Origin: a bacterium
GTDB lineage: Bacteria > Patescibacteriota > Microgenomatia > UBA1400 > UBA12108
Reading direction: 5' to 3'
DNA length: 62,682 nucleotides
Assembly (NCBI GenBank): GCA_021788365.1
Contig: JAJYKS010000006.1
Coordinates: 1 to 62,682, forward strand
The notes beneath the pieces were generated by a model. It did no database searches, was not told where the DNA came from, and saw nothing but the letters and a program-made list of their open reading frames with translations. This document shows positions 1-54,968 of the stretch, in pieces. The first letter of the stretch is position 1; the number at the start of each line of letters is the position of its first letter. Position numbers and translations under genes: made by a program.

Positions 1-63
1 TGGTATCCATACTATGTGGTATTGGTGTCTCCACATTCCATGTGCATTGAGCTTTGTTTTCAC
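1..63 (-). mobile_element. tnpA: IS200/IS605-family (HUH Y1) transposase TnpA, 5' end only (runs off window start)
   Basis: Minus strand from GTG at 63 reads MKTKLNAHGMWRHQYHIVWIP, matching the H..W...YHIVW.PKYR N-terminus of IS200-type TnpA; not in the ORF track. Confidence 0.75.
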
Positions 64-85
64 ATCCAAATTGTCTCACATTCAC

Positions 86-117
86 TCACGGGCTTACGCC
101 CGTGATCCTCTGTGAGG
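86..117 (-). repeat. Subterminal hairpins of the IS200/IS605-like element (putative left end)
   Basis: Perfect 8-bp stem TCACGGGC-ttac-GCCCGTGA (86-105) plus CCTC-tgt-GAGG (107-117), 23 nt upstream of the tnpA start. Confidence 0.6.
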
Positions 118-165
118 GGGTCAATAGTAACAAGATTTTGTAGTTGTTTCAATATGTCCTATAAC

Positions 166-194
166 TTGACAGTTAGCCTGGAATGTGCTATATT
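166..194 (+). promoter_or_regulatory. sigma70-type promoter
   Basis: TTGACA (166-171), 17 bp, TATATT (189-194) with extended TGn. Confidence 0.6.
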
Positions 195-402
195 TCTGTG
201 CGTCAGTATCCAGACAAAACCAGGCTAACGCAGTTTGTACTTTGTCTTCATACTAACAAAATCTTGCACATTAAAATGCGGAAGTTATCTCCTTTTCCAA
301 GTGGGTAATTTTGTGGGTATTATGGTATCTACAAAAATACCCACTTGGGTAGAAAAACGTTTTTCAATCCATTCTGTTCTGAGACAAAAAAAGGAGATCG
401 AC

Positions 403-717
403 ATGAATAAAAAAGTTGTTGGTTTAAGTTTCTCGTTTTGTGTTCGTGACATCGCGAGTGGTCGCATTGCACTCGACGAAGTCGAGAAGATTGTGGCCGC
501 AACCGCCGCAGACTCTCCCGCCGCGTGGGAAGAACTACTTGCCTCCTACAAGGAGACGTACTGGGACGACAATCCCGACGAGTGCGAGCGGATTGCGCGG
601 TACTTCATTGACAACGGCAAGGTTGAACAACCCCGCCTTTCAGGTCAGGAAGCGCATAACATCGCCGCAGGGCATTGGCTGGTAAACGGTCATCAGACCC
701 GCAATCCCCGCGAATAG
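403..717 (+). CDS. Hypothetical protein (104 aa)
   Basis: ORF 235-717; ATG 403 follows AAGGAG SD; protein-like composition. Confidence 0.7.
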   Translation: MNKKVVGLSFSFCVRDIASGRIALDEVEKIVAATAADSPAAWEELLASYKETYWDDNPDECERIARYFIDNGKVEQPRLSGQEAHNIAAGHWLVNGHQTRNPRE

Positions 718-947
718 CGAACCAAAACAACCAAATACATAAAAACCATGAATACATGGGTGGCGTAAGCCAACGGATTGTTCCGTTATAAACAATACTT
801 CCGCACAAGAAGTGCAAGAACCGCCCGCCCGAAGCTGGAAGTCTGTGATTACATCACAAATTTTCAGTTAGGGCGGTTCTTGTATCAAAAACTAATCGAC
901 AAATGTGCTAGCATATACTCATTAAGTCATTATTTAAGGAGTAAAAT

Positions 948-1475
948 ATGTCACCAAACTTAGTAAGTAGCACCTCATTTTTCTTATCAAATTTTGCCAA
1001 GAAATTAGCTGATGGCAAAACAACGCTTGATGAACTCAAGACACAAATGGAGGGTTCAGTTATTACTCCTGCCAGCAAATTCGATAATGCAGCCGACTTG
1101 GTTGAAGCTTATGGGGATTCGTATTTTCACGGGATTGACGGTAAGGTAGTTATGGATATCGCACAAACCTATATTGAGGGTGTGACCCAAGCAAAGGCGG
1201 AAGGCAGATATTTTGGTCGGAATCGAATGGAGGTTGAGGAAGTATATGGAGAGGACAGACAGAAGGCAGAAAATAGCTTGGTCGAATTCTATAACACGCA
1301 TGGTTTTGGTGTAATGCCAGAGGAACAGTTTCGAGAGGCTAAATTGGATAGTAGGCCAGTTGGTGTATATTTGATGGACTACTATAGCCCAGTTGAGGCG
1401 TTCACCAATAAACCAAGCATGCTAAATGGTGAACAAGTTAATCCTGGCGACATTAAGCCCTTACCCAGAGCATAA
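948..1475 (+). CDS. Hypothetical protein (175 aa)
   Basis: ORF with AAGGAG SD; G-rich plus strand, unlike its neighbours. Confidence 0.75.
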   Translation: MSPNLVSSTSFFLSNFAKKLADGKTTLDELKTQMEGSVITPASKFDNAADLVEAYGDSYFHGIDGKVVMDIAQTYIEGVTQAKAEGRYFGRNRMEVEEVYGEDRQKAENSLVEFYNTHGFGVMPEEQFREAKLDSRPVGVYLMDYYSPVEAFTNKPSMLNGEQVNPGDIKPLPRA

Positions 1476-1493
1476 ATTGTGTTATCATAATGT

Positions 1494-1588
1494 CGCCAGC
1501 AAAGCTGGCGGATCGCGCGCGAAAAAAACAAAATGACTGCGCGGCGCCCCGCACCGCCGCGCTCCTTATCAGGCCGCCGGAGGCGGCC
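1494..1588. repeat. Cluster of three GC-rich REP-like hairpins
   Basis: CGCCAGC-aaa-GCTGGCG (1494-1510); GCGCGGCG-8nt-CGCCGCGC (1539-1562); GGCCGCC-gga-GGCGGCC (1572-1588). Confidence 0.6.
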
Positions 1589-1652
1589 GCAGAGACCTTC
1601 TAACATCTACATAAAAGGCCACTTCATTTGACACCCGTGTATAATGGCTCCA

Positions 1653-1697
1653 ATGAAACTCGTAATCCGCATAACCACCACGACTACCATCCGCTAA
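1653..1697 (+). CDS. Thr-rich attenuator leader peptide MKLVIRITTTTTIR
   Basis: 14-codon ORF with five consecutive Thr codons (1674-1688), 7 nt after TATAAT, followed by mutually exclusive hairpins upstream of thrS. Confidence 0.9.
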   Translation: MKLVIRITTTTTIR

Positions 1698-1747
1698 CGC
1701 GGGGGAGTGTGTTGGATATGCTCACTCCCGCGCCACGCGGGAGTTTT
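1698..1747 (+). terminator. thrS attenuator: antiterminator/terminator pair
   Basis: Terminator ACTCCCGCG-cca-CGCGGGAGT-TTT (1724-1747); its 5' arm can alternatively pair with CGCGGGGGAGTG (1698-1709). Confidence 0.88.
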
Positions 1748-1781
1748 AGTATCTACCCATATACGCTAGAATAAGGAACAT

Positions 1782-3581
1782 ATGCAAAAACAAAAACAAG
1801 AAAGTCTAATACCAGATCTCCATCCGCTGCGCCACAGCGCGGAACACGTTCTCCACCAGGCGATGAAGGAACTCTATCCTTCGATACACCTGGCAATGGG
1901 CCCAGCAACAGACGAAGGCTTCTACTTTGACTTCGACGGCAAAGTCGATGGCAAGAGTGAGGTGGTTATCTCCGAGGCCGATTTCCCGAAAATCGAGAAA
2001 CGCATGGCAGAAATCATTAAAAAGGATCTCCCAATTACCAGATACGAAGTTTCTGAAAAAGAAGCTCGTAAACTCTTTGCCGACAACCCGTACAAACAGG
2101 AGTGGATCGACAAAGCCGTACAAGAGGGTAAAAACATCTCGATCTACTGGACCGGAGAACCAGAGAAACCGGGATCCATGGTGGACCTCTGCAAGGGCCC
2201 TCACGTCGAAAGCACGGGGAAGATAAAAGCGTTTAAGCTCCTCTCCGTGGCCGGTGCCTACTGGCACGGAGATGAGAAGAACAAAATGCTGACCCGTATC
2301 TATGGCACAGCCTTCTTCTCACAACAGGAGCTCGAGGAGCACTTGAAACGGCTAGAAGATGCCAAACTTCACGACCACCGTAAGCTTGGGCGTGATCTCA
2401 ACTTATTCGTTTTCTCCGATCTCGTTGGTAAAGGTCTTCCCATGCTCACGCCATACGGAACAACGATTCGTCGAGAGCTCGAACGATTTGTCGTCGACGA
2501 AGAGATACGACGTGGCTATCAGCACGTTATGACCCCGTCCCTCGCTAAGGTCGACCTCTACCGAACGAGTGGTCACTACCCATACTACAAAGACACTATG
2601 TATCCCCCAATGGTAGTCGACGAAGACGAGCTCATCTTGCGCCCGATGACCTGTCCGCATCACTTCCAGATGTACGTGAGCAGACCGAGGAGCTATCGGG
2701 AGCTTCCCATCCGCTACGCGGAGTTGGCAGACTTATTCCGATATGAGAAGAGTGGCGAGCTATCTGGGCTCATGCGTGTTCGCACGTTCTGCCTGGCAGA
2801 CGCCCACATTATCTGCACCAAGGAGCAAGCGGTGGGGGAGATAAACGCAGTTCTCGACCTCATCGAGTTCGTAAACAACACGCTCGGCATGAAAAAAGGT
2901 GTGGACTATCGCTATCGTCTCTCCTTGGGTGATCGCAGTGACACCAAAAAATATTACAAAGACGATTCCTCCTGGGATTACGCCGAAGGAGTACTACGAA
3001 GTGTCGTACAGTCGCGCGACGTTCCCTATTACGAAGCCGAAAACGAGGCCGCATTTTACGGCCCCAAAATCGATGTGCAGGTAAAAAATGTCGCCGGAAA
3101 AGAAGAGACTGCCTTTACCTGCCAATACGACTTCGTCATGCCTAAGCGCTTCAAGCTACGTTTTACCAATGCAGAAGGAGCAGAAGAAGAACCCATAGTG
3201 GTTCACCGGAGCAGCATCGGCGCATTCGAACGGACTATGGCATTTCTCATCGAGAAATACGCAGGGGCATTCCCGCTCTGGCTCTCGCCTGTACAGGTAA
3301 AGCTCGCCACTGTCTCAGAAAAAGAGCTGGGCGCTGCAGAAAAGGTAAAAACTGCTCTTAGTAGGGAAGGAATACGAGTGGAGCTCGATGATAGCAATCG
3401 TACGCTCGGGAAAAAGTCATCCGACGCACGAAGCGAAAAGGTTCCGTATTTTGCCATCGTAGGTGCAAAAGAGGCAGAGAACGGCACCGTCACGCTCAAG
3501 AATAGAGCGGGCGAACAGGTAGTACTCACCATAGACGAAGCAGTTGCCAAACTCAAGCAGGAAATAGTAAGCAAACAATAG
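1782..3581 (+). CDS. thrS: Threonyl-tRNA synthetase (lacks N-terminal TGS domain)
   Basis: HSAEH editing motif, DLCKGPHV, RPMTCPHH, AAFYGPKID, class II core and anticodon domain. Confidence 0.99.
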   Translation: MQKQKQESLIPDLHPLRHSAEHVLHQAMKELYPSIHLAMGPATDEGFYFDFDGKVDGKSEVVISEADFPKIEKRMAEIIKKDLPITRYEVSEKEARKLFADNPYKQEWIDKAVQEGKNISIYWTGEPEKPGSMVDLCKGPHVESTGKIKAFKLLSVAGAYWHGDEKNKMLTRIYGTAFFSQQELEEHLKRLEDAKLHDHRKLGRDLNLFVFSDLVGKGLPMLTPYGTTIRRELERFVVDEEIRRGYQHVMTPSLAKVDLYRTSGHYPYYKDTMYPPMVVDEDELILRPMTCPHHFQMYVSRPRSYRELPIRYAELADLFRYEKSGELSGLMRVRTFCLADAHIICTKEQAVGEINAVLDLIEFVNNTLGMKKGVDYRYRLSLGDRSDTKKYYKDDSSWDYAEGVLRSVVQSRDVPYYEAENEAAFYGPKIDVQVKNVAGKEETAFTCQYDFVMPKRFKLRFTNAEGAEEEPIVVHRSSIGAFERTMAFLIEKYAGAFPLWLSPVQVKLATVSEKELGAAEKVKTALSREGIRVELDDSNRTLGKKSSDARSEKVPYFAIVGAKEAENGTVTLKNRAGEQVVLTIDEAVAKLKQEIVSKQ

Positions 3582-3592
3582 TTACCAGATCA

Positions 3593-3626
3593 CATACCAG
3601 GTATGCAATATTGCATACCTGGTATG
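3593..3626. repeat. Perfect 34-bp palindrome
   Basis: CATACCAGGTATGCAAT/ATTGCATACCTGGTATG; a half-unit recurs at 61726-61749. Confidence 0.85.
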
Positions 3627-3670
3627 AAATTACATCACTAATAATCAAGAAATCCGCTATAATAAGCAAC

Positions 3671-4186
3671 ATGAAGTTTTACGCCATCAACCAATTTGTA
3701 AAAGGAACCGAGCTCCGTGTCGTGGACGAAACTGGCAAACAAATAGGCGTTATGAGCAAAACCGACGCCTTGGTTGAGGCCCAAAATCGCAATTTGGATC
3801 TAGTCGAAATCGCGCCTCTTGCCAAGCCTCCAGTTGCCAAGATTATAGATTTCAAGAAATTTAAGTATCTCGAGGCAAAAAAAGAGCGAGAGGGTCGCGC
3901 CAAAAGCGGCAAAGTAGAGCTTAAGGAAATCCGATTTACTCCATTTATTGCCACTGGTGATTTTGAGTCACGTGTAGGCCGCATGAAGGATATACTTGAG
4001 GATGGCGACCGAGTAAAGATTGTGGTAAAATTCACCGGTCGTCAAATCACGCACCCAGAGTTCGGACACGATCTTGTAAAAAAGATCCTGTCTTCACTTG
4101 AGGGAACAGCGGTTGCCGACGGAGTCGCAAAACTCCAAGGAAAGCAGTTGTTCTTGGTATTAAATCCGACCAAGAAGGCAAAATAA
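3671..4186 (+). CDS. infC: Translation initiation factor IF-3
   Basis: LRVVDETGKQIG, LDLVEIAP..PPVAKIIDFKKFKY, VELKEIRF; ATG 3671 is 7 nt after TATAAT. Confidence 0.97.
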   Translation: MKFYAINQFVKGTELRVVDETGKQIGVMSKTDALVEAQNRNLDLVEIAPLAKPPVAKIIDFKKFKYLEAKKEREGRAKSGKVELKEIRFTPFIATGDFESRVGRMKDILEDGDRVKIVVKFTGRQITHPEFGHDLVKKILSSLEGTAVADGVAKLQGKQLFLVLNPTKKAK

Positions 4187-4190
4187 ATCT

Positions 4191-4382
4191 ATGAAACGCA
4201 AAAGTAAGAAATCGCTGACAAAGCGAATCAAAGTGACAAAAAACGGTAAGATATTGCGTCGCACGCAGAACATGCGGCATCGCCGTTCACACAAGACTGC
4301 CGCCCAAGTCCGTCGTATGAAGGTAGTAAAAACCTTACACGGTCGCATTGCACGACGCGTAAAAAAGATTGTAGGAGCCTAG
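4191..4382 (+). CDS. rpmI: 50S ribosomal protein L35
   Basis: Basic 63 aa, KR.KVTKNGK..R, position in infC-rpmI-rplT. Confidence 0.93.
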   Translation: MKRKSKKSLTKRIKVTKNGKILRRTQNMRHRRSHKTAAQVRRMKVVKTLHGRIARRVKKIVGA

Positions 4383-4385
4383 AAT

Positions 4386-4739
4386 ATGACACGTGTTAAA
4401 AATAGCCCCACCAAACGTGCGCGCCACCACAAGGTGTTTGCACGAACCCGTGGGTTCCGCATGACCAAAAATCATCTGTGGAAAGTGGCACACGAAGCCT
4501 ACCTCCACGCCCTCGACTACTCCTTCCAAGGAAGGAAAGACCGCAAATCAGACATGAAATCACTCTGGATTGTGCGTCTCAATGCTGCACTTCGCGAGCT
4601 CGACCCCAAGTACACCTACAGTCGCTTTGTTGCCGATCTAAAAAAGAAAAACATCGTGCTCGATCGCAAGGTTTTGGCCGACGTCGCCGTTTCCGACACC
4701 CCAACTTTCAAGAAAATCGTCGAAGCAGCCTCAAAATAA
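4386..4739 (+). CDS. rplT: 50S ribosomal protein L20
   Basis: MTRVK, GRK.RK...KSLWIVRLNAA, YSRF..LKK.NI.LDRKVLAD. Confidence 0.98.
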   Translation: MTRVKNSPTKRARHHKVFARTRGFRMTKNHLWKVAHEAYLHALDYSFQGRKDRKSDMKSLWIVRLNAALRELDPKYTYSRFVADLKKKNIVLDRKVLADVAVSDTPTFKKIVEAASK

Positions 4740-4756
4740 TCCCATACATCGGGGTA

Positions 4757-4857
4757 TTGACAAAATTGCAGCCTGTAGTGTACTATGTGCGTCTTGCGAG
4801 AAGCAACCACTCCGGCAGCTATTGTATATATAGACTTGCCTACGAGAGGTTGCTTTT
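4757..4857 (+). ncRNA. Candidate small structured RNA (promoter followed by rod hairpin ending in U-run)
   Basis: TTGACA 4757-4762, 18 bp, TACTAT 4781-4786; hairpin AAGCAACC (4801-08)/GGTTGCTT (4848-55) with inner CTC/GAG, GGCA/TGCC, CTAT/ATAG; no ORF. Confidence 0.4.
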
Positions 4858-4875
4858 GGCGTATCTAGGGGTAAT

Positions 4876-4905
4876 TTGACAGGAAACAGTAACACGTAGT
4901 ATCCT
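4876..4905 (+). promoter_or_regulatory. Promoter of the pheST leader
   Basis: TTGACA 4876-4881, 18 bp, TATCCT 4900-4905, 8 nt before the leader ATG. Confidence 0.6.
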
Positions 4906-4913
4906 CTCCCCAC

Positions 4914-4958
4914 ATGAGTCACAAAGAAAATTTATTTTTCTTTTTTACCACCAGCTAA
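4914..4958 (+). CDS. Phe-rich attenuator leader peptide MSHKENLFFFFTTS (pheM-like)
   Basis: 14-codon ORF with four consecutive Phe codons (4935-4946) upstream of pheST attenuator hairpins. Confidence 0.9.
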   Translation: MSHKENLFFFFTTS

Positions 4959-4959
4959 A

Positions 4960-5006
4960 CGCGGGGAGGTAAACGTGCCTACCACCCCGCGGGAGCGGGG
5001 TTTTTT
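4960..5006 (+). terminator. pheST attenuator: antiterminator/terminator pair
   Basis: Terminator ACCCCGC-ggga-GCGGGGT-TTTTT (4984-5006); antiterminator GCGGGGAGGTA (4961-71)/TACCACCCCGC (4980-90); 1:2 pairing TTTACC (4944-49)/GGTAAA (4968-73). Confidence 0.88.
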
Positions 5007-5034
5007 GTGAGCACAAGATGTTACAATGAAACCT

Positions 5035-6039
5035 ATGCAAAACAAGATTGATACAATTAAAAATACCTTCATCGCAGACCTGGTTGCAGCAGCAACGCTC
5101 GAAGCTCTAGAAGCGATCCGAATAAAGTACCTCGGCAAATCGAAAGGGGAGACAACGCTTCTCCTCAAGGAATTACAATCGCTCTCACTCGACGATAAAA
5201 AGCACTATGGCCCCCTCCTCAACCAACTAAAGCACTATCAAGAGTCAGAACTAGAAAATAAATATAAAATACTAAATAGCGAAATAAAAAATGAAACAGA
5301 CCTCACTATTCCCGGCACTCCCCGTCCAGTCGGCCACCTACACCCCACCTCAGTTGTCATCCGAGAAATGAACGAATTCTTCCGCTACCACGGTTTCTCC
5401 ATAGGAGAAGGGCCTGAAATTGAAAATGCTGACTACAATTTCCGACGCTTAAATTTGCCGGAAGGGCATCCTGCGACAGATCTCCAGGACACACTCTTTA
5501 TCAAAGAGCCAGATATACTGCTGCGCACACACACCTCATCGGTAGAAACGCGCATACTTTCGGCGTACCACGACAAGCTACCCCTACGAGTCGTAGTCCC
5601 CGGCAAGTGCTACCGCAACGAGACAGGCAATGCCACCAACAATAGCTTCTTCTACCAATATCAAGGATTCGTTGTAGACAAGGGGATCACCATCCAGCAT
5701 CTAAAAGACGTCCTCACCAAATTCCACCAATTCTTGTTCGGCAAAGATGTAGTGCTACGCTTCCGCTACAAATACTACCCCGAGGTTTCTCCCGGTATGG
5801 GCGTCGACATGCAGTGCCAATTCTGCAAAGGGGTGGGGTGCGGCGTGTGTAAATATCGCGGCTATATCGAGGTTTTGGGGAGCGGCATGATCCACTACAA
5901 CACGCTTCTAGCTTGTGGTATCGATCCTGACATCTACACCGGTTTCGCCTGGGGCATGGGTTTAGACCGCCTCGTCATGAGTAAATTCGGTATCACTGAT
6001 ATTAGGAAACTTTATAGCGGAGATATCGTCTACCTATGA
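5035..6039 (+). CDS. pheS: Phenylalanyl-tRNA synthetase alpha subunit
   Basis: GHLHP, HPATDLQDT, LLRTHTSS, PGKCYRN, GFAWGMGLDRL; start 5035 (5026 alternative). Confidence 0.99.
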   Translation: MQNKIDTIKNTFIADLVAAATLEALEAIRIKYLGKSKGETTLLLKELQSLSLDDKKHYGPLLNQLKHYQESELENKYKILNSEIKNETDLTIPGTPRPVGHLHPTSVVIREMNEFFRYHGFSIGEGPEIENADYNFRRLNLPEGHPATDLQDTLFIKEPDILLRTHTSSVETRILSAYHDKLPLRVVVPGKCYRNETGNATNNSFFYQYQGFVVDKGITIQHLKDVLTKFHQFLFGKDVVLRFRYKYYPEVSPGMGVDMQCQFCKGVGCGVCKYRGYIEVLGSGMIHYNTLLACGIDPDIYTGFAWGMGLDRLVMSKFGITDIRKLYSGDIVYL

Positions 6040-7883
6040 AAATACCTATTACCTGGCTCAAAGACTACGTCGAAACCGATAAGAAACCGGCAGAAATTGC
6101 AAAAGTGTTCACGAGCCTCGGTCTCATGCTCGACAAGCCCATTGATGGTGATGTGCTAGATCTCGAGCATCGCATGGACCGTGCCGACTGGCTGAGCGTA
6201 ATAGGCTGTGCCCGCGACTTTGCAGCCTTTGAGGGATTAAAACTGCACGAGCAAAAAGTGTACGGCAAGCCCGGAAAATCAGTTGTTGCCAAAAAGCGCA
6301 TTACCATTACGGGTAAAACTACTGCCGCACATCGCTTCAACACGCGCGTATTCCGTGGCGTAAAAATCGGACCATCACCAAAGTGGCTCGTCGACCGTCT
6401 TGAAGCATACGGCATGGAGAGCAAAAATAACATCGTAGACATAACGAACTACACAATGGTGGAATACGGACAGCCGCTCCATGCACAAGACATTGCCAAG
6501 CTGCCGGCTCCCGAGATCACCTTACGCAAGGCGACTAGTGGAGAGACGATTACTACACTCCTTGGCACAACCGTGGTGCTTGATAGAGAAACAGATATTC
6601 TCGCTTCAGGAGGGAAGCCAGTCGTAATTATGGGGATAGTCGGTGGCGCAGAAACCGGAGTTACAGAGACTACCGTCGATATCCTCCTCGACGCCGGCAA
6701 TTACGACGCTCGAGTTATCCGCAAAACCTCCCGCCGCCTACGCATTATGAATGAAACCGTATCCAGATGCGACAAATTCCTCGACCCCAGGCTTACCGAG
6801 GTAGCACTCGCTCGTGCAACCGAACTCATCCTCGAAATTGCAGGTGGTACGTACTATGAAAACGAAGACTGGTATCCACACCCGAAGTTGCCACAATCGG
6901 AAGTACTGCACTTCGCACGCCTGGCACAGCTCAGCGGTATGGACATACCAATAGCACAAGTGAAAAGAACTCTCCGGGCACTTGAATATCAGATTATAGA
7001 AGAGAGTGACGACGCGCTCACCGTTGAAGTACCATATTTCCGCACCGACATCGAGGTGGAAGACGACCTCGTCGCAGACATACTCCGTATCGGTGACTAC
7101 ACCAATATTCCCGCCACTCCACTTGCCTCGCCTGTGCCCGTGGATATTACTTCAGCGCTGTATCGCTTCGAAGACCGGCTCCGCGATGTTTGCGCTGCCA
7201 TGGGTTGCGACGAGCATATCACCGACCCCTTAGTCAAAGCTACCGGCAGGGTAGGGGAAATCCACCTAGCTAACTCGTTGTCCGAAGATCAAAACGCACT
7301 GCGCACCTCGCTCGTCCCTGGACTCGTCCATGTGCAAAATACCTACAAAAAACACGGTATAGCGACGCCAGTATTCGAGCTCGGCTCCGTCTACGATGGA
7401 ACAGCTTCCACCCAAAGCGAAACACGGCAACTTACCGTTGTTGGTAGCGATCCGTCCGGTTACCTTGCAACTATTCTCTCCGCACTCGGGATAAAAAATT
7501 ATTCTCTCTCTTCACATGAGGCAGATCCTGTCCTTGTCTTAGTAAACCTCAAATTAGTCGGTACCATCAGTACCTCCTCATTTACTCTCAATACAGCGGC
7601 ACTCATCGAACATGTCTCTCCCTACCAAAGTCTCAAAACGGAAATCGCTCATGTACCGTCACTAGATATTTCGTTAACGCTGCCTACAGGTACTCACTTT
7701 GAGAAAGCAGCTAAAATTCTCGCAAAGTCCGCACCGAAGCCATCGTCCATTGCAGTTATCGAGCGCTATGAGAACTCGCTCCTTGTTCGTCTCACATGGG
7801 ACAAACAAATCGACGCGGACAAAGTCCGACTTTCATTGGTAAAAGCGCTGGAAGCAGCTGGTATCGCCACTCGATCGAAATAG
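6036..7883 (+). CDS. pheT: Phenylalanyl-tRNA synthetase beta subunit (short, no B2 OB domain)
   Basis: MKIPITWLKDYV, DRADWLS, NNIVDITNY.M.EYGQPLHA.D, PYFRTDI. Confidence 0.97.
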   Translation: MKIPITWLKDYVETDKKPAEIAKVFTSLGLMLDKPIDGDVLDLEHRMDRADWLSVIGCARDFAAFEGLKLHEQKVYGKPGKSVVAKKRITITGKTTAAHRFNTRVFRGVKIGPSPKWLVDRLEAYGMESKNNIVDITNYTMVEYGQPLHAQDIAKLPAPEITLRKATSGETITTLLGTTVVLDRETDILASGGKPVVIMGIVGGAETGVTETTVDILLDAGNYDARVIRKTSRRLRIMNETVSRCDKFLDPRLTEVALARATELILEIAGGTYYENEDWYPHPKLPQSEVLHFARLAQLSGMDIPIAQVKRTLRALEYQIIEESDDALTVEVPYFRTDIEVEDDLVADILRIGDYTNIPATPLASPVPVDITSALYRFEDRLRDVCAAMGCDEHITDPLVKATGRVGEIHLANSLSEDQNALRTSLVPGLVHVQNTYKKHGIATPVFELGSVYDGTASTQSETRQLTVVGSDPSGYLATILSALGIKNYSLSSHEADPVLVLVNLKLVGTISTSSFTLNTAALIEHVSPYQSLKTEIAHVPSLDISLTLPTGTHFEKAAKILAKSAPKPSSIAVIERYENSLLVRLTWDKQIDADKVRLSLVKALEAAGIATRSK

Positions 7884-7887
7884 GCCG

Positions 7888-10509
7888 CTAAGGAGTAGGT
7901 GAAGGAGAGGGGGATGGCGAGGGGCTCAGAGTAGGTGTGGGCGATGGCGATGGAGTGGGGGTGGGTGATGGCGAGGCGTCCCAGTTAGTTTGCACCCCAA
8001 CGTGAATAATTGTTTCTGCATCAGTGTTATCTTTCGTATGCACATGTGCCTTAAGTTCATACGTCCCCTTGGCGAGACTAGGCGCAGTCGTCGACACCAC
8101 CTTTTGCCCGTTGAATACTTCCCACTTCGTGCCGTTTATATAGGTAGTAATTGTATCGACATCCGAATTTGTACCCACGGTGATGTGTACGGGGAAATTA
8201 GACGCAAGGTTAGAGTCTTGATTGTGTGGTGAATCAAAGCCAATGGTTACGTCACTCGTGCTCCCACAGTATTGTGTCGGCACCTGATATCGGGGATCAG
8301 TCTGAGTTGCTAACCACCCCGGAATATCAGACTGCCACAACGGGTTATCATCTTTTGCCACAATAAACTCTTGGTTGTCATAGTAGTTGCGTGCCACATC
8401 CGCATCGTTCGCAAGCTTCGTGTGATCGCTCTTGCAAACTTTAACATTGGTATGCACTGGGTCGGGAGCTGTCGGTACGGTACCCTGGATAAAGTAATCT
8501 TGGCGAGAAGGGAACCCATCATGAGCAGGATACCCAGAGATTGCGTCAACATCTTGTTGCACAATATCTGATGGCTGGGTGAACTGATCACCCTTGTAGA
8601 GATCCCAAGCCTTTTGCATGATATAGCGCCATATCGGTGAAGCACCAGTCACTCCAGAGGCCACCTGTGTCATGGGCGAGTTATCGTTGTTGCCCACCCA
8701 CACGCCGACGACAGCGTTGGTACTCCAGCCAATAGTCCAGTTATCACGTTTGTCGTTGGTAGTACCGGTCTTCACAGCAATAGGTAGCCCATTCATATTG
8801 AGATAGCTATTTGGACCAAACGTAAGGAGCCGCGCGTTATTATCCGATAAAACGTTGTCGATAAGAAACGCCACTTCAGGCGATACGACTTGATCGCGTT
8901 TTCCAGGATTAGCCTGGTATATGGTCTTGCCATCTTTTTCCACTTTAAGTATAGAAATCGGGTCTACTTTATCGCCACCATTGGCAAAAGCGCTATAGGC
9001 ATGCACCAAGTCAAAGAGTCGTACTTCGCCACCACCCAAAGTCACCGAAAGACCAAGTCGAGACAAATTTGCCGCGGTGGGCTGCAGTGAATCAAACCCC
9101 ATTTGGTAGGCAAACGCCATCATGTTCTTAAGCCCCACCATGTCCAGAAGCTTTACCGCCGGAATATTGAGAGAGGATGCAAGCGAATAGCGGAGTTGCA
9201 CCGGTCCGTGATACTTGCCGTCATAGTTACCTGGCTCATAAAACTGATCGGATGTCGCACCGGGGAACTTCGTCGGCACGTCCCATACCATGGTAGCCGG
9301 AGAGTAGCCCTTAGAGAACGCCGCAGCGTACGTCACCGGTTTAATAGACGACCCTGGCTGCCGCAAGGACATGACCACATTTACCTGCCCATCGTAGTCC
9401 TTGGCAAAATAATCCTTGGAACCAACCATGGCCAGTATCTCCCCCGTCTGGGGATTCATAACCATCGCTGCCCCGTTACCAATATGGTATTTTGCCACTT
9501 TTGCCACCTCGGTAGCGACTGTCTGCTGGGCAAAGTCTTGTAACGTGGAGTCGAGCGTTGTAGTTACCGTATAGCCACCAGCAGAAACAAAGTTCTCGCC
9601 GAACATGGACACGAGTTGATCTTTTACATAAAAGACAAAGTGGGGTGCCTTTATCGAGACATCTTGCGGCTGAAACTGCACTAAGGGCAGTGCTTTCTCG
9701 GCATCACTTTCCTGCTGGGCGGTAATATATCCATTCGACTGCATAGCCTTAAGTACAGCTGTTGCACGGGCTACATACGCCTTGGGATTGCTACCATAGG
9801 GCGAGTAGAGTGACGGCGCCTGGGGCATACCAGCGAGGATTACCGCCTGCACGAGGTTTAGGTCTTTAGGTGCGACACCAAAATATTTCTGCGACGCCGC
9901 ACCGATTCCAACCGCTGTACCACCATACGGAACATCATTCAGGTACATTTGTAGGATCTGATCTTTCGTAAATTTACGCTCAATCTCGATCGCCAAGACA
10001 AGTTCCTTGAACTTGCGAACAAGCGTCCGATCATTGGTCAAAAGTTGATTTTTTACGAGCTGTTGGGTGAGAGTAGAACCACCCTCAGCACGCCCAGAAG
10101 TAAAAAGGCGAGAAAATCCGCGGAGGATACCGAGTACATCGTATCCAGGATGTGTATAAAAGTTCTTATCCTCGATAGATATCGTAGCTTCTCTAAGATA
10201 TACGGGAATATCAGAAAACGGGACAAAAACCTGATCATATTTCTGATAAAGATCGTACAAGGTATTGCCATTACGATCGAGTATTTTTGTAGAATAACCC
10301 CCTTGCTGTACCACCGTATCCGGATTGGGAAGGTACCGAGCGTAGTAGGCAAACATGCCAACAAACAAGAAAATCCCCAGAATCGTTGCAACGAGTGCAC
10401 CGAGCCCGAGATACTTTAGAAGATGTGCCCTGTCAAAATGTAGCTGCAGATGGAACTTCCCTCGCCTCCGCTCCCGTCTACTTTTCCACGTGTTAGCCCA
10501 ATCCTGCAT
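7888..10509 (-). CDS. Bifunctional penicillin-binding protein 1A family (GT51 + transpeptidase, C-terminal Ig-like domain and Pro/Ser/Thr tail)
   Basis: IEDKNFY.HPG, GGSTLTQQLVKN, RQPGSSIKP, SLN, KTGT; ATG 10509 is 7 nt after TATACT. Confidence 0.95.
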   Translation of the reverse strand: MQDWANTWKSRRERRRGKFHLQLHFDRAHLLKYLGLGALVATILGIFLFVGMFAYYARYLPNPDTVVQQGGYSTKILDRNGNTLYDLYQKYDQVFVPFSDIPVYLREATISIEDKNFYTHPGYDVLGILRGFSRLFTSGRAEGGSTLTQQLVKNQLLTNDRTLVRKFKELVLAIEIERKFTKDQILQMYLNDVPYGGTAVGIGAASQKYFGVAPKDLNLVQAVILAGMPQAPSLYSPYGSNPKAYVARATAVLKAMQSNGYITAQQESDAEKALPLVQFQPQDVSIKAPHFVFYVKDQLVSMFGENFVSAGGYTVTTTLDSTLQDFAQQTVATEVAKVAKYHIGNGAAMVMNPQTGEILAMVGSKDYFAKDYDGQVNVVMSLRQPGSSIKPVTYAAAFSKGYSPATMVWDVPTKFPGATSDQFYEPGNYDGKYHGPVQLRYSLASSLNIPAVKLLDMVGLKNMMAFAYQMGFDSLQPTAANLSRLGLSVTLGGGEVRLFDLVHAYSAFANGGDKVDPISILKVEKDGKTIYQANPGKRDQVVSPEVAFLIDNVLSDNNARLLTFGPNSYLNMNGLPIAVKTGTTNDKRDNWTIGWSTNAVVGVWVGNNDNSPMTQVASGVTGASPIWRYIMQKAWDLYKGDQFTQPSDIVQQDVDAISGYPAHDGFPSRQDYFIQGTVPTAPDPVHTNVKVCKSDHTKLANDADVARNYYDNQEFIVAKDDNPLWQSDIPGWLATQTDPRYQVPTQYCGSTSDVTIGFDSPHNQDSNLASNFPVHITVGTNSDVDTITTYINGTKWEVFNGQKVVSTTAPSLAKGTYELKAHVHTKDNTDAETIIHVGVQTNWDASPSPTPTPSPSPTPTLSPSPSPSPSPTP

Positions 10510-10574
10510 ATAGCCGAGTATAGAGCAGGCTAGACCCGTAGACAACTCCCCCCAGGCTTTCTATAATGAACGGC

Positions 10575-11726
10575 ATGAATGATGACCTCTTAACCCGCCG
10601 TGTTGCCAAGATTCTCCCCTCAAAAGAGGGACTTGAAGCACTCATAAAATCGAAGAAAAAAATCAGGCTCTACCAGGGATTCGATCCCACCTTTTCTGCA
10701 CTTCACCTCGGTCATACCATCGGTTTTCGCAAGCTCATGGATTTTGCAAAAGCAGGGCATGAAGTTATATTTTTGTTCGGTACGGGAACAGTTTTGGCCG
10801 GTGACCCATCGGAAAGAGATACGGGACGTAAATTAATTACACAAGAAGAAATAGATGAAAATATTAAAACATGGAAAGAGCAAGTCAGCAAAATTGTAGA
10901 CTTTGATCTGGTAAAGATCAGGCAAAACGGCGACTGGCTCACCAAGCTAACACTCAAGGACATAATAAACATCGCCAGCAACATTAGCGCCGTACAGCTA
11001 TTCAAGCGAGAAATGTTTACACGCCGCATAGCTCATGGAGACACTGTCTGGTATCACGAAACCATGTACCCACTTCTCCAGGGGTACGACTCGGTCGCAA
11101 TGGACGTAGACCTCGAAGTTGGCGGCACTGACCAAGAATTTAACATGCTCATCGGCCGTGAGCTGCAGCACAAAATGAATAATCATGAAAAATTTGTATT
11201 AACAACACCGATGATCAACGGCACGGATGGGAAGAAAATGAGTAAATCGGTGGGAAACTGTATATTTTTGACAGAACCACCAGAGGATGTGTATCGCAAG
11301 ATCATGGCGATGCACGACGAAATGATTCCCACGTACTATGAACTTTTAACCGACATACCTATGGATGAAATTGCAGCCTTAGATCCCAGTAAGCCTGTTG
11401 AAAACAAAAAACGACTTGCGTACGACATCACCCGACAGCTACATGGGGTAGAAGGCGCTCAAACAGCCGCAAAATTCTATGACTCATATGTTCAAACAAA
11501 ATTAGCCCCAGAAGATTCACCAGAAGTTATCCTAAAATCGGGCACTCCACTCCTCGAAGCGCTGAAAAACGCAGACCTTGGGGTAAGTAATAGTGACATT
11601 AAGCGAACACTCGAGCAGGGCGGGGTAGAATTAGACGGGGTCAGGCTTTCCGATCCTGTATCAGAAATAAAGGCCGGCACCCTCAAATTTGGCAAGCGCA
11701 CATTCAGAAAAATTGTGGTTAAATAA
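10575..11726 (+). CDS. tyrS: Tyrosyl-tRNA synthetase
   Basis: GFDPT..LHLGH, YPLLQGYD, GGTDQEFN, KKMSKS, C-terminal S4 domain. Confidence 0.99.
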   Translation: MNDDLLTRRVAKILPSKEGLEALIKSKKKIRLYQGFDPTFSALHLGHTIGFRKLMDFAKAGHEVIFLFGTGTVLAGDPSERDTGRKLITQEEIDENIKTWKEQVSKIVDFDLVKIRQNGDWLTKLTLKDIINIASNISAVQLFKREMFTRRIAHGDTVWYHETMYPLLQGYDSVAMDVDLEVGGTDQEFNMLIGRELQHKMNNHEKFVLTTPMINGTDGKKMSKSVGNCIFLTEPPEDVYRKIMAMHDEMIPTYYELLTDIPMDEIAALDPSKPVENKKRLAYDITRQLHGVEGAQTAAKFYDSYVQTKLAPEDSPEVILKSGTPLLEALKNADLGVSNSDIKRTLEQGGVELDGVRLSDPVSEIKAGTLKFGKRTFRKIVVK

Positions 11727-11733
11727 AGACACT

Positions 11734-11838
11734 ATGTCACTCACTAAAAAACAAAAAAAGATTTGGACAGTGATCACTGCAATCGCCTCGGTCGCGCTCC
11801 TTGCAATGTCATTCGCCCCCTTCTTCACCCTCAAATAA
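11734..11838 (+). CDS. Small single-pass membrane protein (34 aa)
   Basis: MSLTKKQKKIWTVITAIASVALLAMSFAPFFTLK fills the tyrS-recG gap; basic N-terminus plus hydrophobic helix. Confidence 0.65.
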   Translation: MSLTKKQKKIWTVITAIASVALLAMSFAPFFTLK

Positions 11839-11853
11839 GTTACACTATTAGCT

Positions 11854-13773
11854 ATGGATCTTATTGACCTTCCCGGCATCGGCGAGAAAACTGCTGCCAC
11901 ACTACGGACACACGGCATCGAAACCGCAGAAGCACTTAGTCATTACTACCCACGCGCGTACCGCACCTACTATGCAACATCTGCCGATAAACTTCCGATA
12001 GGGGAATATGTTTCTCTAATAGGCACCATCTCCCGCCCCGTTTCTCACCACACGGGGCACGTGAGTACACAGGTTGCTACCTTTAAGGACGATGGGGGCT
12101 CGCTCACCCTCCGTTGGTTCAACGCTCCGTATATCGTCAGGTCACTCCGAGTGGATACCACGTACCAGGTGCGAGGCAAGGTGGAAATTTTTGCAGGCAA
12201 ACGCCAAATGGTAAATCCTGAAACCCACCTGATTACCGGAGAATCGCCTCAACCGTCTGACCAAATTGTGCCCGTTTATACCGCTATTGGCACGGTAAAA
12301 TCCGGGAACCTCCGCAAAATAGTCGCCGAGGCGCTTAAACTCGCTGTCACTGACCCGCTCACTACAAAAATTCGTACAACGTACGGCCTTGTCGACCTCG
12401 AAACCGCGCTCCATAACATCCATTTTCCAAAAGACAACGACTCACTCGAAGCTGCTATACACCGTCTCGGCTTCGACGAGCTCTACGCACTCCAAATGGA
12501 GTCGCTAAAATCCGCCGAACATACCCACCCAGCAACCAACCCAATTCACTGCGATATGGGGATACTCCAAAACTGGATTACAAGCCTTCCCTTTGTCCCC
12601 ACTACTGCCCAAACACGAAGCATCGATGAAATCCTCAAAGATCTCGGAAACGGGGTGGCCATGCACCGCCTACTCCAAGGAGAGGTAGGAAGCGGCAAGA
12701 CGCTCGTAGCCGCAGCAGCCGCACTCACCGTCAAGCTCGCCGGCAAACAAACACTGGTCATGGCACCCACCCAGATACTCGCCGAGCAGTTGCACACGTC
12801 GCTCACCAGCTTCCTCCAAGACGCCGCCTCCATCTCATTGGTCACCCACGACGTGCACGGCGATACGACTGCCGACATAGTCGTTGGAACGCAAGCGCTC
12901 CTACAAGAAAAACACACATTTAGCACAATTGGGCTTGTCATTGTAGACGAGCAGCACCGTTTCGGCGTCGTGCAAAGACTACTACTGACACGTTTCGCCC
13001 CCGCACCCCATTTCCTCATGATGACCGCCACACCCATCCCACGCTCACTGGCCATGACCAGCCTAACAGGGTTAGATGTTTCCCATCTCGACGAGCTGCC
13101 AAAGAACCGTGTCCCAGTGAAGACGTATTATGTTACAGAAGAAAAGCGCAAGAACGCCTTCGATTGGATAAAGCGGGAGATACAGAGCGGCAACCAAGCA
13201 TTTGTTGTAGCTCCAGTTATAGACGAAGCGGAAGACGAGGAGGGAAACGCCAAAAAATCGGTGACGCTCTTAGAAAAAGAATTGACCACCCTCCTACCCG
13301 GCATCTCAGTGGATGTTATGCACGGCCGTATGAAAGAGCACGAGAAAACGGAGCACCTGCGAATGTTCCGTGATTGTCATACGCAAGTACTCGTAGCCAC
13401 CTCGATGGTCGAGGTAGGGATCGATATTCCAACGGCAAATATTATGGTCATAGAAGACGCCGAGCGGTTCGGCCTAGCCCAGTTACACCAGCTCCGAGGC
13501 AGGGTAGGGCGTGGCGGAGCACAAGGTCATTGCTTGCTTTTTTCCAAAATGAAATCAGAAAAGTCTCGTGAACGACTCACATACTTCGTGCGCGAAACCG
13601 ACGGGGCAAAGCTCGCAGAATATGATTTACGCACCCGCGGACCTGGCCAACTCTTTGGCCTAGTCCAGCATGGCTTCTTCTCCCTCCGTTTTGCCTCACT
13701 CTTTGACGAGCGTTTGCTCGAAGAAACTCATGCTGCCGCGCTTAGTGTTGCCAAATCGTCCATTTCCCCCTAA
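11854..13773 (+). CDS. recG: ATP-dependent DNA helicase RecG
   Basis: RLLQGEVGSGKT, DEQHRFGV, MTATPIPRSL, RFGLAQLHQLRGRVGRG. Confidence 0.98.
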   Translation: MDLIDLPGIGEKTAATLRTHGIETAEALSHYYPRAYRTYYATSADKLPIGEYVSLIGTISRPVSHHTGHVSTQVATFKDDGGSLTLRWFNAPYIVRSLRVDTTYQVRGKVEIFAGKRQMVNPETHLITGESPQPSDQIVPVYTAIGTVKSGNLRKIVAEALKLAVTDPLTTKIRTTYGLVDLETALHNIHFPKDNDSLEAAIHRLGFDELYALQMESLKSAEHTHPATNPIHCDMGILQNWITSLPFVPTTAQTRSIDEILKDLGNGVAMHRLLQGEVGSGKTLVAAAAALTVKLAGKQTLVMAPTQILAEQLHTSLTSFLQDAASISLVTHDVHGDTTADIVVGTQALLQEKHTFSTIGLVIVDEQHRFGVVQRLLLTRFAPAPHFLMMTATPIPRSLAMTSLTGLDVSHLDELPKNRVPVKTYYVTEEKRKNAFDWIKREIQSGNQAFVVAPVIDEAEDEEGNAKKSVTLLEKELTTLLPGISVDVMHGRMKEHEKTEHLRMFRDCHTQVLVATSMVEVGIDIPTANIMVIEDAERFGLAQLHQLRGRVGRGGAQGHCLLFSKMKSEKSRERLTYFVRETDGAKLAEYDLRTRGPGQLFGLVQHGFFSLRFASLFDERLLEETHAAALSVAKSSISP

Positions 13774-54793: not shown

Positions 54794-54821
54794 TTGACAA
54801 GCCGTCACAATTTGCTATTAT
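54794..54821 (+). promoter_or_regulatory. Promoter of the hisS-operon leader
   Basis: TTGACA 54794-99, 16 bp, TGc-TATTAT 54816-21, 8 nt before ATG 54830. Confidence 0.7.
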
Positions 54822-54829
54822 CCACCTCA

Positions 54830-54919
54830 ATGAACACCTACACTCTAGCCACTGTAGCCCTGAGCTTGTCGAAGGGTCATAGCTCCCACACATTTGTGGC
54901 GGGAGCGCTTTTCGCGTAA
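54830..54919 (+). CDS. Candidate attenuator leader peptide (29 aa, His codons at 54878 and 54887)
   Basis: MNTYTLATVALSLSKGHSSHTFVAGALFA; its 3' part GTGGCGGG is complementary to the terminator 5' arm. Confidence 0.6.
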   Translation: MNTYTLATVALSLSKGHSSHTFVAGALFA

Positions 54920-54968
54920 AAAAGAAATAATTAGTTTCTTCCCATACCCCGCCACCAGGCGGGTTTTT
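54896..54968 (+). terminator. Attenuator-type antiterminator/terminator
   Basis: Terminator CCCGCC-acca-GGCGGG-TTTTT (54948-68); GTGGCGGG (54896-903) pairs perfectly with CCCGCCAC (54948-55). Confidence 0.8.

Follow-up and report, generated by a model that had tools for sequence, protein, structure and literature searches.

A likely phenylalanine leader-peptide attenuator between rplT and pheST in a small-genome member of the Patescibacteria

The spacer between rplT and pheS in a 62,682-nucleotide (nt) stretch of DNA from an uncultivated bacterium (contig JAJYKS010000006.1 of assembly GCA_021788365.1; the whole stretch is called the window below) very likely holds a transcription attenuator of the leader-peptide type, in which a translating ribosome would sense charged tRNA-Phe and so control whether transcription continues into pheS-pheT. 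Attenuation by leader peptides is a textbook mechanism in Proteobacteria, and pheST of Escherichia coli is attenuated by the 14-amino-acid leader pheM. An earlier note on this DNA had proposed the same mechanism for the window, and the proposal is now supported by the matching geometry, by conservation and covariation in relatives, and by a control at thrS, with regulation itself predicted from the sequence. The argument draws on the anatomy of the sequence, its alternative folds, the conservation and covariation of its parts, and the agreement, at four synthetase genes, of the codon run with the gene that follows it, and from these we infer the transcription start, the translation of the leader, the termination at the U-tract, and the response to phenylalanine (Phe). 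The parts of the proposed switch are as follows, with peptides here and below written up to their stop codons.

4876–4905, plus strand: promoter-like site of the leader found in a promoter scan, with −35 TTGACA at 4876–4881, an 18-nt spacer, and −10 TATCCT at 4900–4905
4914–4958, plus strand: leader open reading frame (ORF) MSHKENLFFFFTTS, 14 codons from ATG 4914 to TAA 4956–4958, probably translated from a leaderless mRNA, with homologous leaders in relatives
4935–4946, plus strand: run of four Phe codons in tandem (TTT TTC TTT TTT), proposed as the sensor
4960–4969, plus strand: region 2, CGCGGGGAGG, which begins 2 nt past the stop codon and would form the antiterminator with region 3
4984–5006, plus strand: intrinsic terminator, with region 3 CCCCGCG at 4985–4991, region 4 GCGGGG at 4995–5000, and T6 at 5001–5006

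Transcription would start at or beside the leader AUG (4914), and a ribosome would load onto the 5′ end without the help of a Shine-Dalgarno site. When Phe-tRNA is plentiful, the ribosome would reach the stop codon (4956–4958) and its footprint would cover region 2 (4960–4969), leaving region 3 to pair with region 4 and RNA polymerase to terminate at the U-tract (~5001–5006). When Phe-tRNA is scarce, the ribosome would stall on the four Phe codons (4935–4946), which lie 14–25 nt upstream of region 2; region 2 would then be free to pair with region 3 as the latter emerges, block the terminator, and let the polymerase read into pheST.

The earlier note had described a leader with four tandem Phe codons and a 7-bp GC terminator followed by U6, and both descriptions hold, the ORF and its codon run lying at the positions listed above. 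The terminator hairpin ACCCCGC-GGGA-GCGGGGT (4984–5001) found in the terminator scan has seven pairs, six of them G-C, around a 4-nt loop ahead of T6, and it folds alone with −14.1 kcal/mol. The minimum-free-energy fold of the free RNA is the antiterminator, in which CGCGGGG (4960–4966) pairs with CCCCGCG (4985–4991); this fold has −37.8 kcal/mol (z = −3.07), and 0 of 200 shuffled sequences were as stable. When the folds were repeated with ribosome-sized masks to mimic ribosome positions, the antiterminator formed in the free RNA and with the ribosomal A site on the first Phe codon, and the terminator alone formed with the ribosome on the stop codon and its footprint over region 2.

These folds confirm the 2:3 and 3:4 stems of what had been proposed as a complete set of 1:2, 2:3, and 3:4 stems, and leave the 1:2 stem unsupported. 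The only candidate for region 1, CCUCUCCCC at 4903–4911, could pair with GGGGAGG (4963–4969), and 23 of 200 shuffles pair equally well. The candidate lies upstream of the AUG and inside the −10 box and would therefore not be contained in a leaderless transcript. The stem is not conserved across 17 relatives either, comparable pairings being missing from many of them. The device thus appears to be a two-hairpin switch, not the full trpL three-hairpin architecture, and the folding model predicts read-through as its default when the leader is not translated.

Conservation was examined in the sequence upstream of pheS at 110 loci, drawn from 18 families of the same Patescibacteria order; family counts were made with a simple detector and inspection by eye, and false positives were removed by hand. 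Ten of the 18 families (f1, f4, f5, f8, f9, f11, f12, f13, f14, and f18) have Phe-rich leaders of the same geometry ahead of pheS; automated hits in f3 and f15 proved to be rplT C-termini and were discarded. Examples of the leaders are MKPMQHLITASKFFFTHQ, MTNHNLHTFFFFTS, MTNTKTFFFFKL, ..PFFSFFFFGNDA, MKTNSVTSRFFFFTQQ, ..TTTFFFSPL, ..LTSFFFFSHC, and MNQAFFFRFAFFSK. Outside the Phe run the peptides are unconserved, and their lengths range from 12 to 25 residues. The layout is constant: the last Phe codon is followed by 2–4 codons, the stop codon, 1–6 nt, and a G-rich region 2 that approximates a copy of the 3′ arm of the terminator, with 23–33 nt between the stop codon and the terminator stem. 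The sequences of regions 2, 3, and 4 vary between families yet stay complementary, as in CGCGGGG/CCCCGCG, GGGGAGC/GCTCCCC, GGTGGGT/ACCCACC, GAGGGT/ACCCTC, and GGGATT/AATCCC.

Because the spacer lengths vary too much for an alignment-based count of covariation, that count was replaced by a permutation test in which region 2 was set by position alone, as the 16 nt from the second base of the stop codon. The duplex of region 2 with its own terminator arm has a mean energy of −11.2 kcal/mol, versus −8.1 kcal/mol with the arms of other loci, and 0 of 10,000 permutations reached the former value. Phe runs stand ahead of 28/83 terminator-like sites upstream of pheS but of only 12/514 genome-wide, and the corresponding counts for antiterminator-like complements are 35/83 and 14/514. 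The comparison of pheS upstream regions, which had been set beforehand as a test of the proposal, thus recovered the Phe run together with the 2:3 and 3:4 stems across 10 families, with a region 2 that co-varies with the terminator arm, and the element as a whole is judged from these sequence comparisons to be much more than chance.

Related leaders precede three other synthetase genes of the same genome.

1653–1697 of the window, before thrS: leader MKLVIRITTTTTIR, containing TTTTT, with an antiterminator and a terminator (1724–1744); the whole element spans 1638–1752
Contig C7 near 11,700, minus strand: leuS leader ..MTFSRGLSLLLLTT (..SLLLLTT), with a terminator/antiterminator pair
Contig C14 near 84,207, plus strand: cysS leader MLENVCCCPCEDGGECTC, with six Cys codons and a terminator/antiterminator pair

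All three share boxes of the form TGnTAnnAT 6–7 nt before the ATG: the extended −10 of the thrS leader, TGTATAAT, stands 7 nt before its ORF, and those of the leuS and cysS leaders stand 6 nt before theirs. The identity of thrS as the gene for threonyl-tRNA synthetase was also checked by Pfam. At thrS of the relatives, 9 of 13 terminator-like sites follow Thr runs (as in ..QTTTTTNP) and 0 of 13 follow Phe runs, which rules out a compositional artefact. This cross-control is, on sequence grounds, the strongest argument that the codon run serves as the sensor.

The leader was also said to be apparently leaderless, which is plausible. Its −10 box ends 8 nt before ATG 4914 and no Shine-Dalgarno site is present, and the layout TTGACA..GTAGTATCYT..ATG recurs before the leaders of L012 and L019. 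Across ~970 ORFs of the genome, TAnnnT boxes peak sharply 6–7 nt before the ATG, so that such spacing is a genome-wide habit. When aligned, these boxes give an extended −10 consensus, TGnTAtAAT, without a −35 consensus, at ~17% of genes, including operon-internal ones. Because of this peak, leaderless mRNAs appear to be common in this genome, and the boxes suggest a pervasive use of leaderless mRNAs and internal promoters. Several other families place the leader ATG between −1 and +11 nt from the rplT stop codon, and the translation of leaders that adjoin rplT in this way probably occurs by coupling instead of leaderless initiation.

Four observations weigh against the proposed attenuator or narrow its reach. 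The −10 box of the leader (TATCCT) is weak and stands 8 nt from the ATG instead of the modal 6–7 nt, though the −35 box is perfect. When the mask places a ribosome on the fourth Phe codon with a full 13-nt downstream footprint, the terminator is slightly favored (−21.8 versus ~−20.6 kcal/mol). With folds so nearly isoenergetic, read-through would depend on kinetics or on stalling at earlier Phe codons; the order of synthesis would decide, since a free region 2 is available to region 3 before region 4 has been made. The other two observations concern pheS itself, which has no Shine-Dalgarno site for the translation of read-through transcripts and carries an extended −10-like box of its own downstream of the terminator, as do thrS, leuS, and cysS.

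5019–5027, plus strand: extended −10-like box TGTTACAAT, 7 nt before the second pheS ATG (5035), fitting the genome-wide extended −10 consensus (here in the form TGnTAnAAT)

This box is a possible proximal leaderless promoter that would bypass the attenuator, so part of pheST transcription may escape the switch. A similar box stands 6–10 nt before the pheS ATG in 60 of the 110 relatives (L002, L005, L015, L024, L026, and others), including families without the attenuator, such as f15; wherever an attenuator is present, the box lies beyond its terminator. These features could be explained if a genuine attenuator had something other than the amount of translatable pheST mRNA as its main output, pheS being expressed mainly as a leaderless transcript from its own promoter at 5019–5027; read-through would then modulate that promoter by interference, yield a short RNA or peptide with a role of its own, or gate spill-over from the rplT operon. 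We regard this explanation as unlikely. That matching leaders occur at four synthetase genes points to the synthetase itself as the regulated product, and in L026 and L008 a strong Shine-Dalgarno site, without an evident promoter, precedes the gene that follows the terminator. Moreover, many internal genes of the window genome have neither a Shine-Dalgarno site nor a −10 box, and therefore initiation without a Shine-Dalgarno site is probably common. To return to the attenuator as proposed, pheS may have a basal leaderless transcript in addition to Phe-dependent read-through from the leader promoter and from upstream, and the supported claim is limited to an attenuator that may gate part of pheST transcription.

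A second element lies between rplT and the leader, 54 nt upstream of the leader ATG.

4757–4786, plus strand: promoter-like site for a hairpin RNA, TTGACA, N18, TACTAT, with 10/12 matches in the promoter scan, conserved before the hairpin in f1
4794–4860, plus strand: conserved structured hairpin RNA between rplT and the Phe leader, present in a single copy in the genome

RNAalifold predicts 23 pairs for this hairpin RNA, 11 of them with compensatory changes, and the hairpin is found in nearly all f1 genomes. Its homologs in L025 (f5) and L132 (f19) enclose Phe codons and form regions 1:2 of the Phe attenuators there. A peptide-coding role for 4794–4860 was rejected in favor of a structured RNA, the start codon varying (TTG, ATG, CTG, or TCG) and the frame being unconserved. 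In most f1 genomes, the 3′ arm of the hairpin (TTGCTT) doubles as the −35 box of the next leaderless ORF.

Such a structured RNA so near the leader, together with T-box-like leaders at glyS and serS of the same genome (described below), could fit a switch that is flipped by another factor, be it uncharged tRNA-Phe acting in a T-box-like manner, or phenylalanyl-tRNA synthetase or an RNA-binding protein acting on region 2 or on the hairpin RNA. A search of positions 1–12000 of the window with Rfam (4227 families, E ≤ 10) gave no T-box, no Phe leader, and no other relevant match at the locus; a T-box would also need a longer leader than this one. The hairpin RNA is absent from several relatives that have the leader, and the conserved spacing of Phe run, stop codon, and region 2 makes sense with nothing but a ribosome footprint, so we consider control by another factor very improbable. 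It seems more improbable still that the hairpin is an ordinary terminator or insulator of the upstream units, namely the rplT operon and the hairpin RNA, with the Phe ORF arising by chance in a T-rich spacer. T-rich tracts are indeed common near terminators, and no other obvious terminator serves the promoter of the hairpin RNA at 4757. This explanation is, however, strongly disfavored by the in-frame Phe runs with a start and a well-placed stop codon in 10 families of otherwise unrelated sequence, by their enrichment before pheS, by the use of Thr and not Phe before thrS, and by the covariation of regions 2 and 3. Least probable of all is that the ORF encodes a functional small hydrophobic peptide with the hairpins merely as its terminator, because, although an FFFFT motif is common to several families, the peptides are conserved neither in length nor in sequence outside the Phe run, what is conserved is the position before pheS, and the antiterminator would be left without a role.

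Several variations on the leader were seen among the relatives. Most f1 genomes have a variant ORF that runs through region 2 and ends in ..FTPFTSGAFVA, often as the tail of a longer ORF, and its amino-acid specificity is less clear. The longer f1 ORFs with this tail (L010, L013, L017, L020, and L021) contain heptad-like repeats, for example LETKVDGLETK, and in f1 the regulatory leader seems to have grown into a larger coding sequence or to have been taken over by one. In L026 and L021, which belong to two families, a conserved ORF of ~80 residues without a Pfam match lies between the Phe attenuator and pheS, with the pattern MAYCQ..AE....HRARC.LC..I....H.G..P.A.AL.L...Y...GNAWIGA....VVE..GQ.I.

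The genes around the leader place it upstream of pheST, as had been claimed, pheS and pheT being the next genes downstream according to Pfam.

4386–4739, plus strand: rplT (ribosomal protein L20), upstream neighbor of the leader; Pfam Ribosomal_L20, E = 1.4e-33
5026–6039, plus strand: pheS, starting at ATG 5026 or, more likely, at ATG 5035; Pfam tRNA-synt_2d (E = 9.3e-72) and Phe_tRNA-synt_N
6036–7883, plus strand: pheT (615 residues), overlapping the pheS stop codon; Pfam B3_4, B5, and tRNA_synthFbeta (CLM)

From the end of the leader ORF there are 67 nt to ATG 5026 and 76 nt to ATG 5035. The gene order upstream of the leader, thrS-infC-rpmI-rplT, is identical to that of E. coli, and in 19 of 24 relatives the leader likewise follows rplT. 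The genome spans 1.09 Mb in 26 contigs, one of which is the window. Its PheS has its nearest named relatives in “Microgenomates group bacterium GW2011_GWF2_46_18,” Patescibacteria-group genomes, and candidate division WWE3, which places this uncultivated small-genome bacterium in the Candidate Phyla Radiation (CPR)/Patescibacteria and bears out the statement that its phylum is very distant from that of E. coli. In the window genome PheS is unfused; in many relatives, that is, L003, L010–L012, and L016–L019 (f1), L147 and L160 (f8), and L029, L152, L164, and L172 (f14), it is fused to an N-terminal domain of ~250 residues in an open frame of ~585–630 residues. The sole Pfam match of this domain is to the C-terminal part of the core model of alanyl-tRNA synthetase (tRNA-synt_2c positions 472–551).

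Leader-like elements also stand before further synthetase genes. A 29-codon, leaderless-looking ORF MNTYTLATVALSLSKGHSSHTFVAGALFA (54830–54919) and a terminator (54948–54963), together covering 54796–54963 of the window, head an operon of a 63-residue ORF, an M20 peptidase, a GNAT-like protein, and hisS. The tail of this ORF resembles the ..FTSGAFVA leaders of pheS in f1, and its specificity is unclear, with two His and two Phe codons. T-box-like leaders precede glyS and serS (contig C12, 21333–21411, plus strand, and contig C20, 96027–96148, minus strand, respectively), scoring 28 and 25 bits, below the Rfam cut-off, and that of glyS has the canonical AGGGUGGAACCGCG. The genome therefore mixes T-boxes and leader peptides for the control of synthetase genes.

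On balance, we lean slightly toward an order-wide regulon, in which CPR bacteria, themselves unable to make amino acids, would read the host-derived supply of them via leaderless attenuators before thrS, pheST, leuS, cysS, and perhaps the hisS operon, alongside the T-boxes of glyS and serS and over constitutive leaderless promoters. If this is true, the ratio of read-through to terminated leader in metatranscriptomes would report the limiting amino acid of these symbionts in situ. Attenuation of this kind would mean that ultra-small symbionts keep amino-acid-specific sensing, with the attenuators sitting at synthetase genes and not at biosynthetic operons, which these organisms lack, and it would provide a sequence-defined readout of amino-acid limitation that can be mined from metatranscriptomes.

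The evolutionary origin of the pheST leader can be considered as follows. Among 60 genomes from ~50 other Patescibacteria families, one plausible Phe leader was found, MTSFIYTSFCFRI, in the same class, and therefore the Phe leader is not a general CPR trait. Outside the CPR, a comparison with ~70 pheS loci in Firmicutes, Bacteroidota, and other phyla yielded 0–1 hits. Because the distribution is thus patchy within Patescibacteria and nearly empty in those ~70 loci, an origin within the order, that is, convergence with Proteobacteria, is probably the better explanation. The alternative, in which the rplT-leader-pheST module is homologous to that of E. coli pheM and hence ancient, is less likely; the leader is too short to align with pheM, and synteny and geometry are the same. 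Either way, the locus is a clear example of an rplT-leader-pheST layout that has been reused, whether by convergence or from very early on. No report linking CPR or Patescibacteria to leader-peptide attenuation was found in the full-text literature searched, which leaves out most subscription journals. The kind of mechanism is already known, and no new one is revealed here; to our knowledge, what is new is the member from Patescibacteria and the phylum-level setting.

The closest known system is E. coli pheM, which is likewise a 14-codon Phe-rich leader between rplT and pheS, with its stop codon 2–3 codons after the last Phe, a region 2 that begins a few nt after the stop codon and copies the 3′ arm of the terminator, and an intrinsic terminator with a U-tract, in the shared gene order thrS-infC-rpmI-rplT-pheM-pheS-pheT (followed in E. 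coli by ihfA). The E. coli leader ends in FFFYFST, and its region 2, GGAGGCU, lies 3–5 nt after the stop codon and repeats region 4. The two systems differ in that E. coli pheM has a 5′ untranslated region with a Shine-Dalgarno-like AAGG and a separate rplT terminator before the leader, whereas the window leader appears leaderless and has no conserved 1:2 hairpin. In E. coli, pheS begins ~220 nt after the T-run of the terminator and has its own Shine-Dalgarno site, while the terminator of the window ends 20–29 nt before pheS with a promoter-like box in between.

Attenuation at synthetase genes rather than at biosynthetic operons also has precedents in other phyla. Leader-peptide attenuators precede trpS and leuS in Streptomyces, and His leaders precede hisS paralogs in Bacillus (PMC1262725; PMC2965389); unlike the window locus, these cases sense other amino acids and are led by Shine-Dalgarno sites. 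Leader-peptide systems were at that time known only from Proteobacteria and Actinobacteria, apart from the new cases in Firmicutes (PMC2965389). Leaderless polycysteine short ORFs in mycobacteria are reported to act as Cys-responsive attenuators (bioRxiv 10.1101/834739). They resemble the present elements in placing at the 5′ end of the transcript a short regulatory ORF, enriched in one amino acid, that acts on genes further down the operon, and the cysS leader of the window genome is their close analog; the elements described here differ by their phylum, by their aminoacyl-tRNA synthetase targets, and by an explicit intrinsic terminator and antiterminator. In Firmicutes, the T-box riboswitch (RF00230) controls many aminoacyl-tRNA synthetase genes (PMC1262725; PMC2965389). 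The T-box follows the same logic, in which an antiterminator forms in response to uncharged tRNA and transcription continues into the synthetase gene. The window locus, however, has no tRNA-binding Stem I, specifier, or T-box sequence, and its sensor would instead be the translating ribosome.

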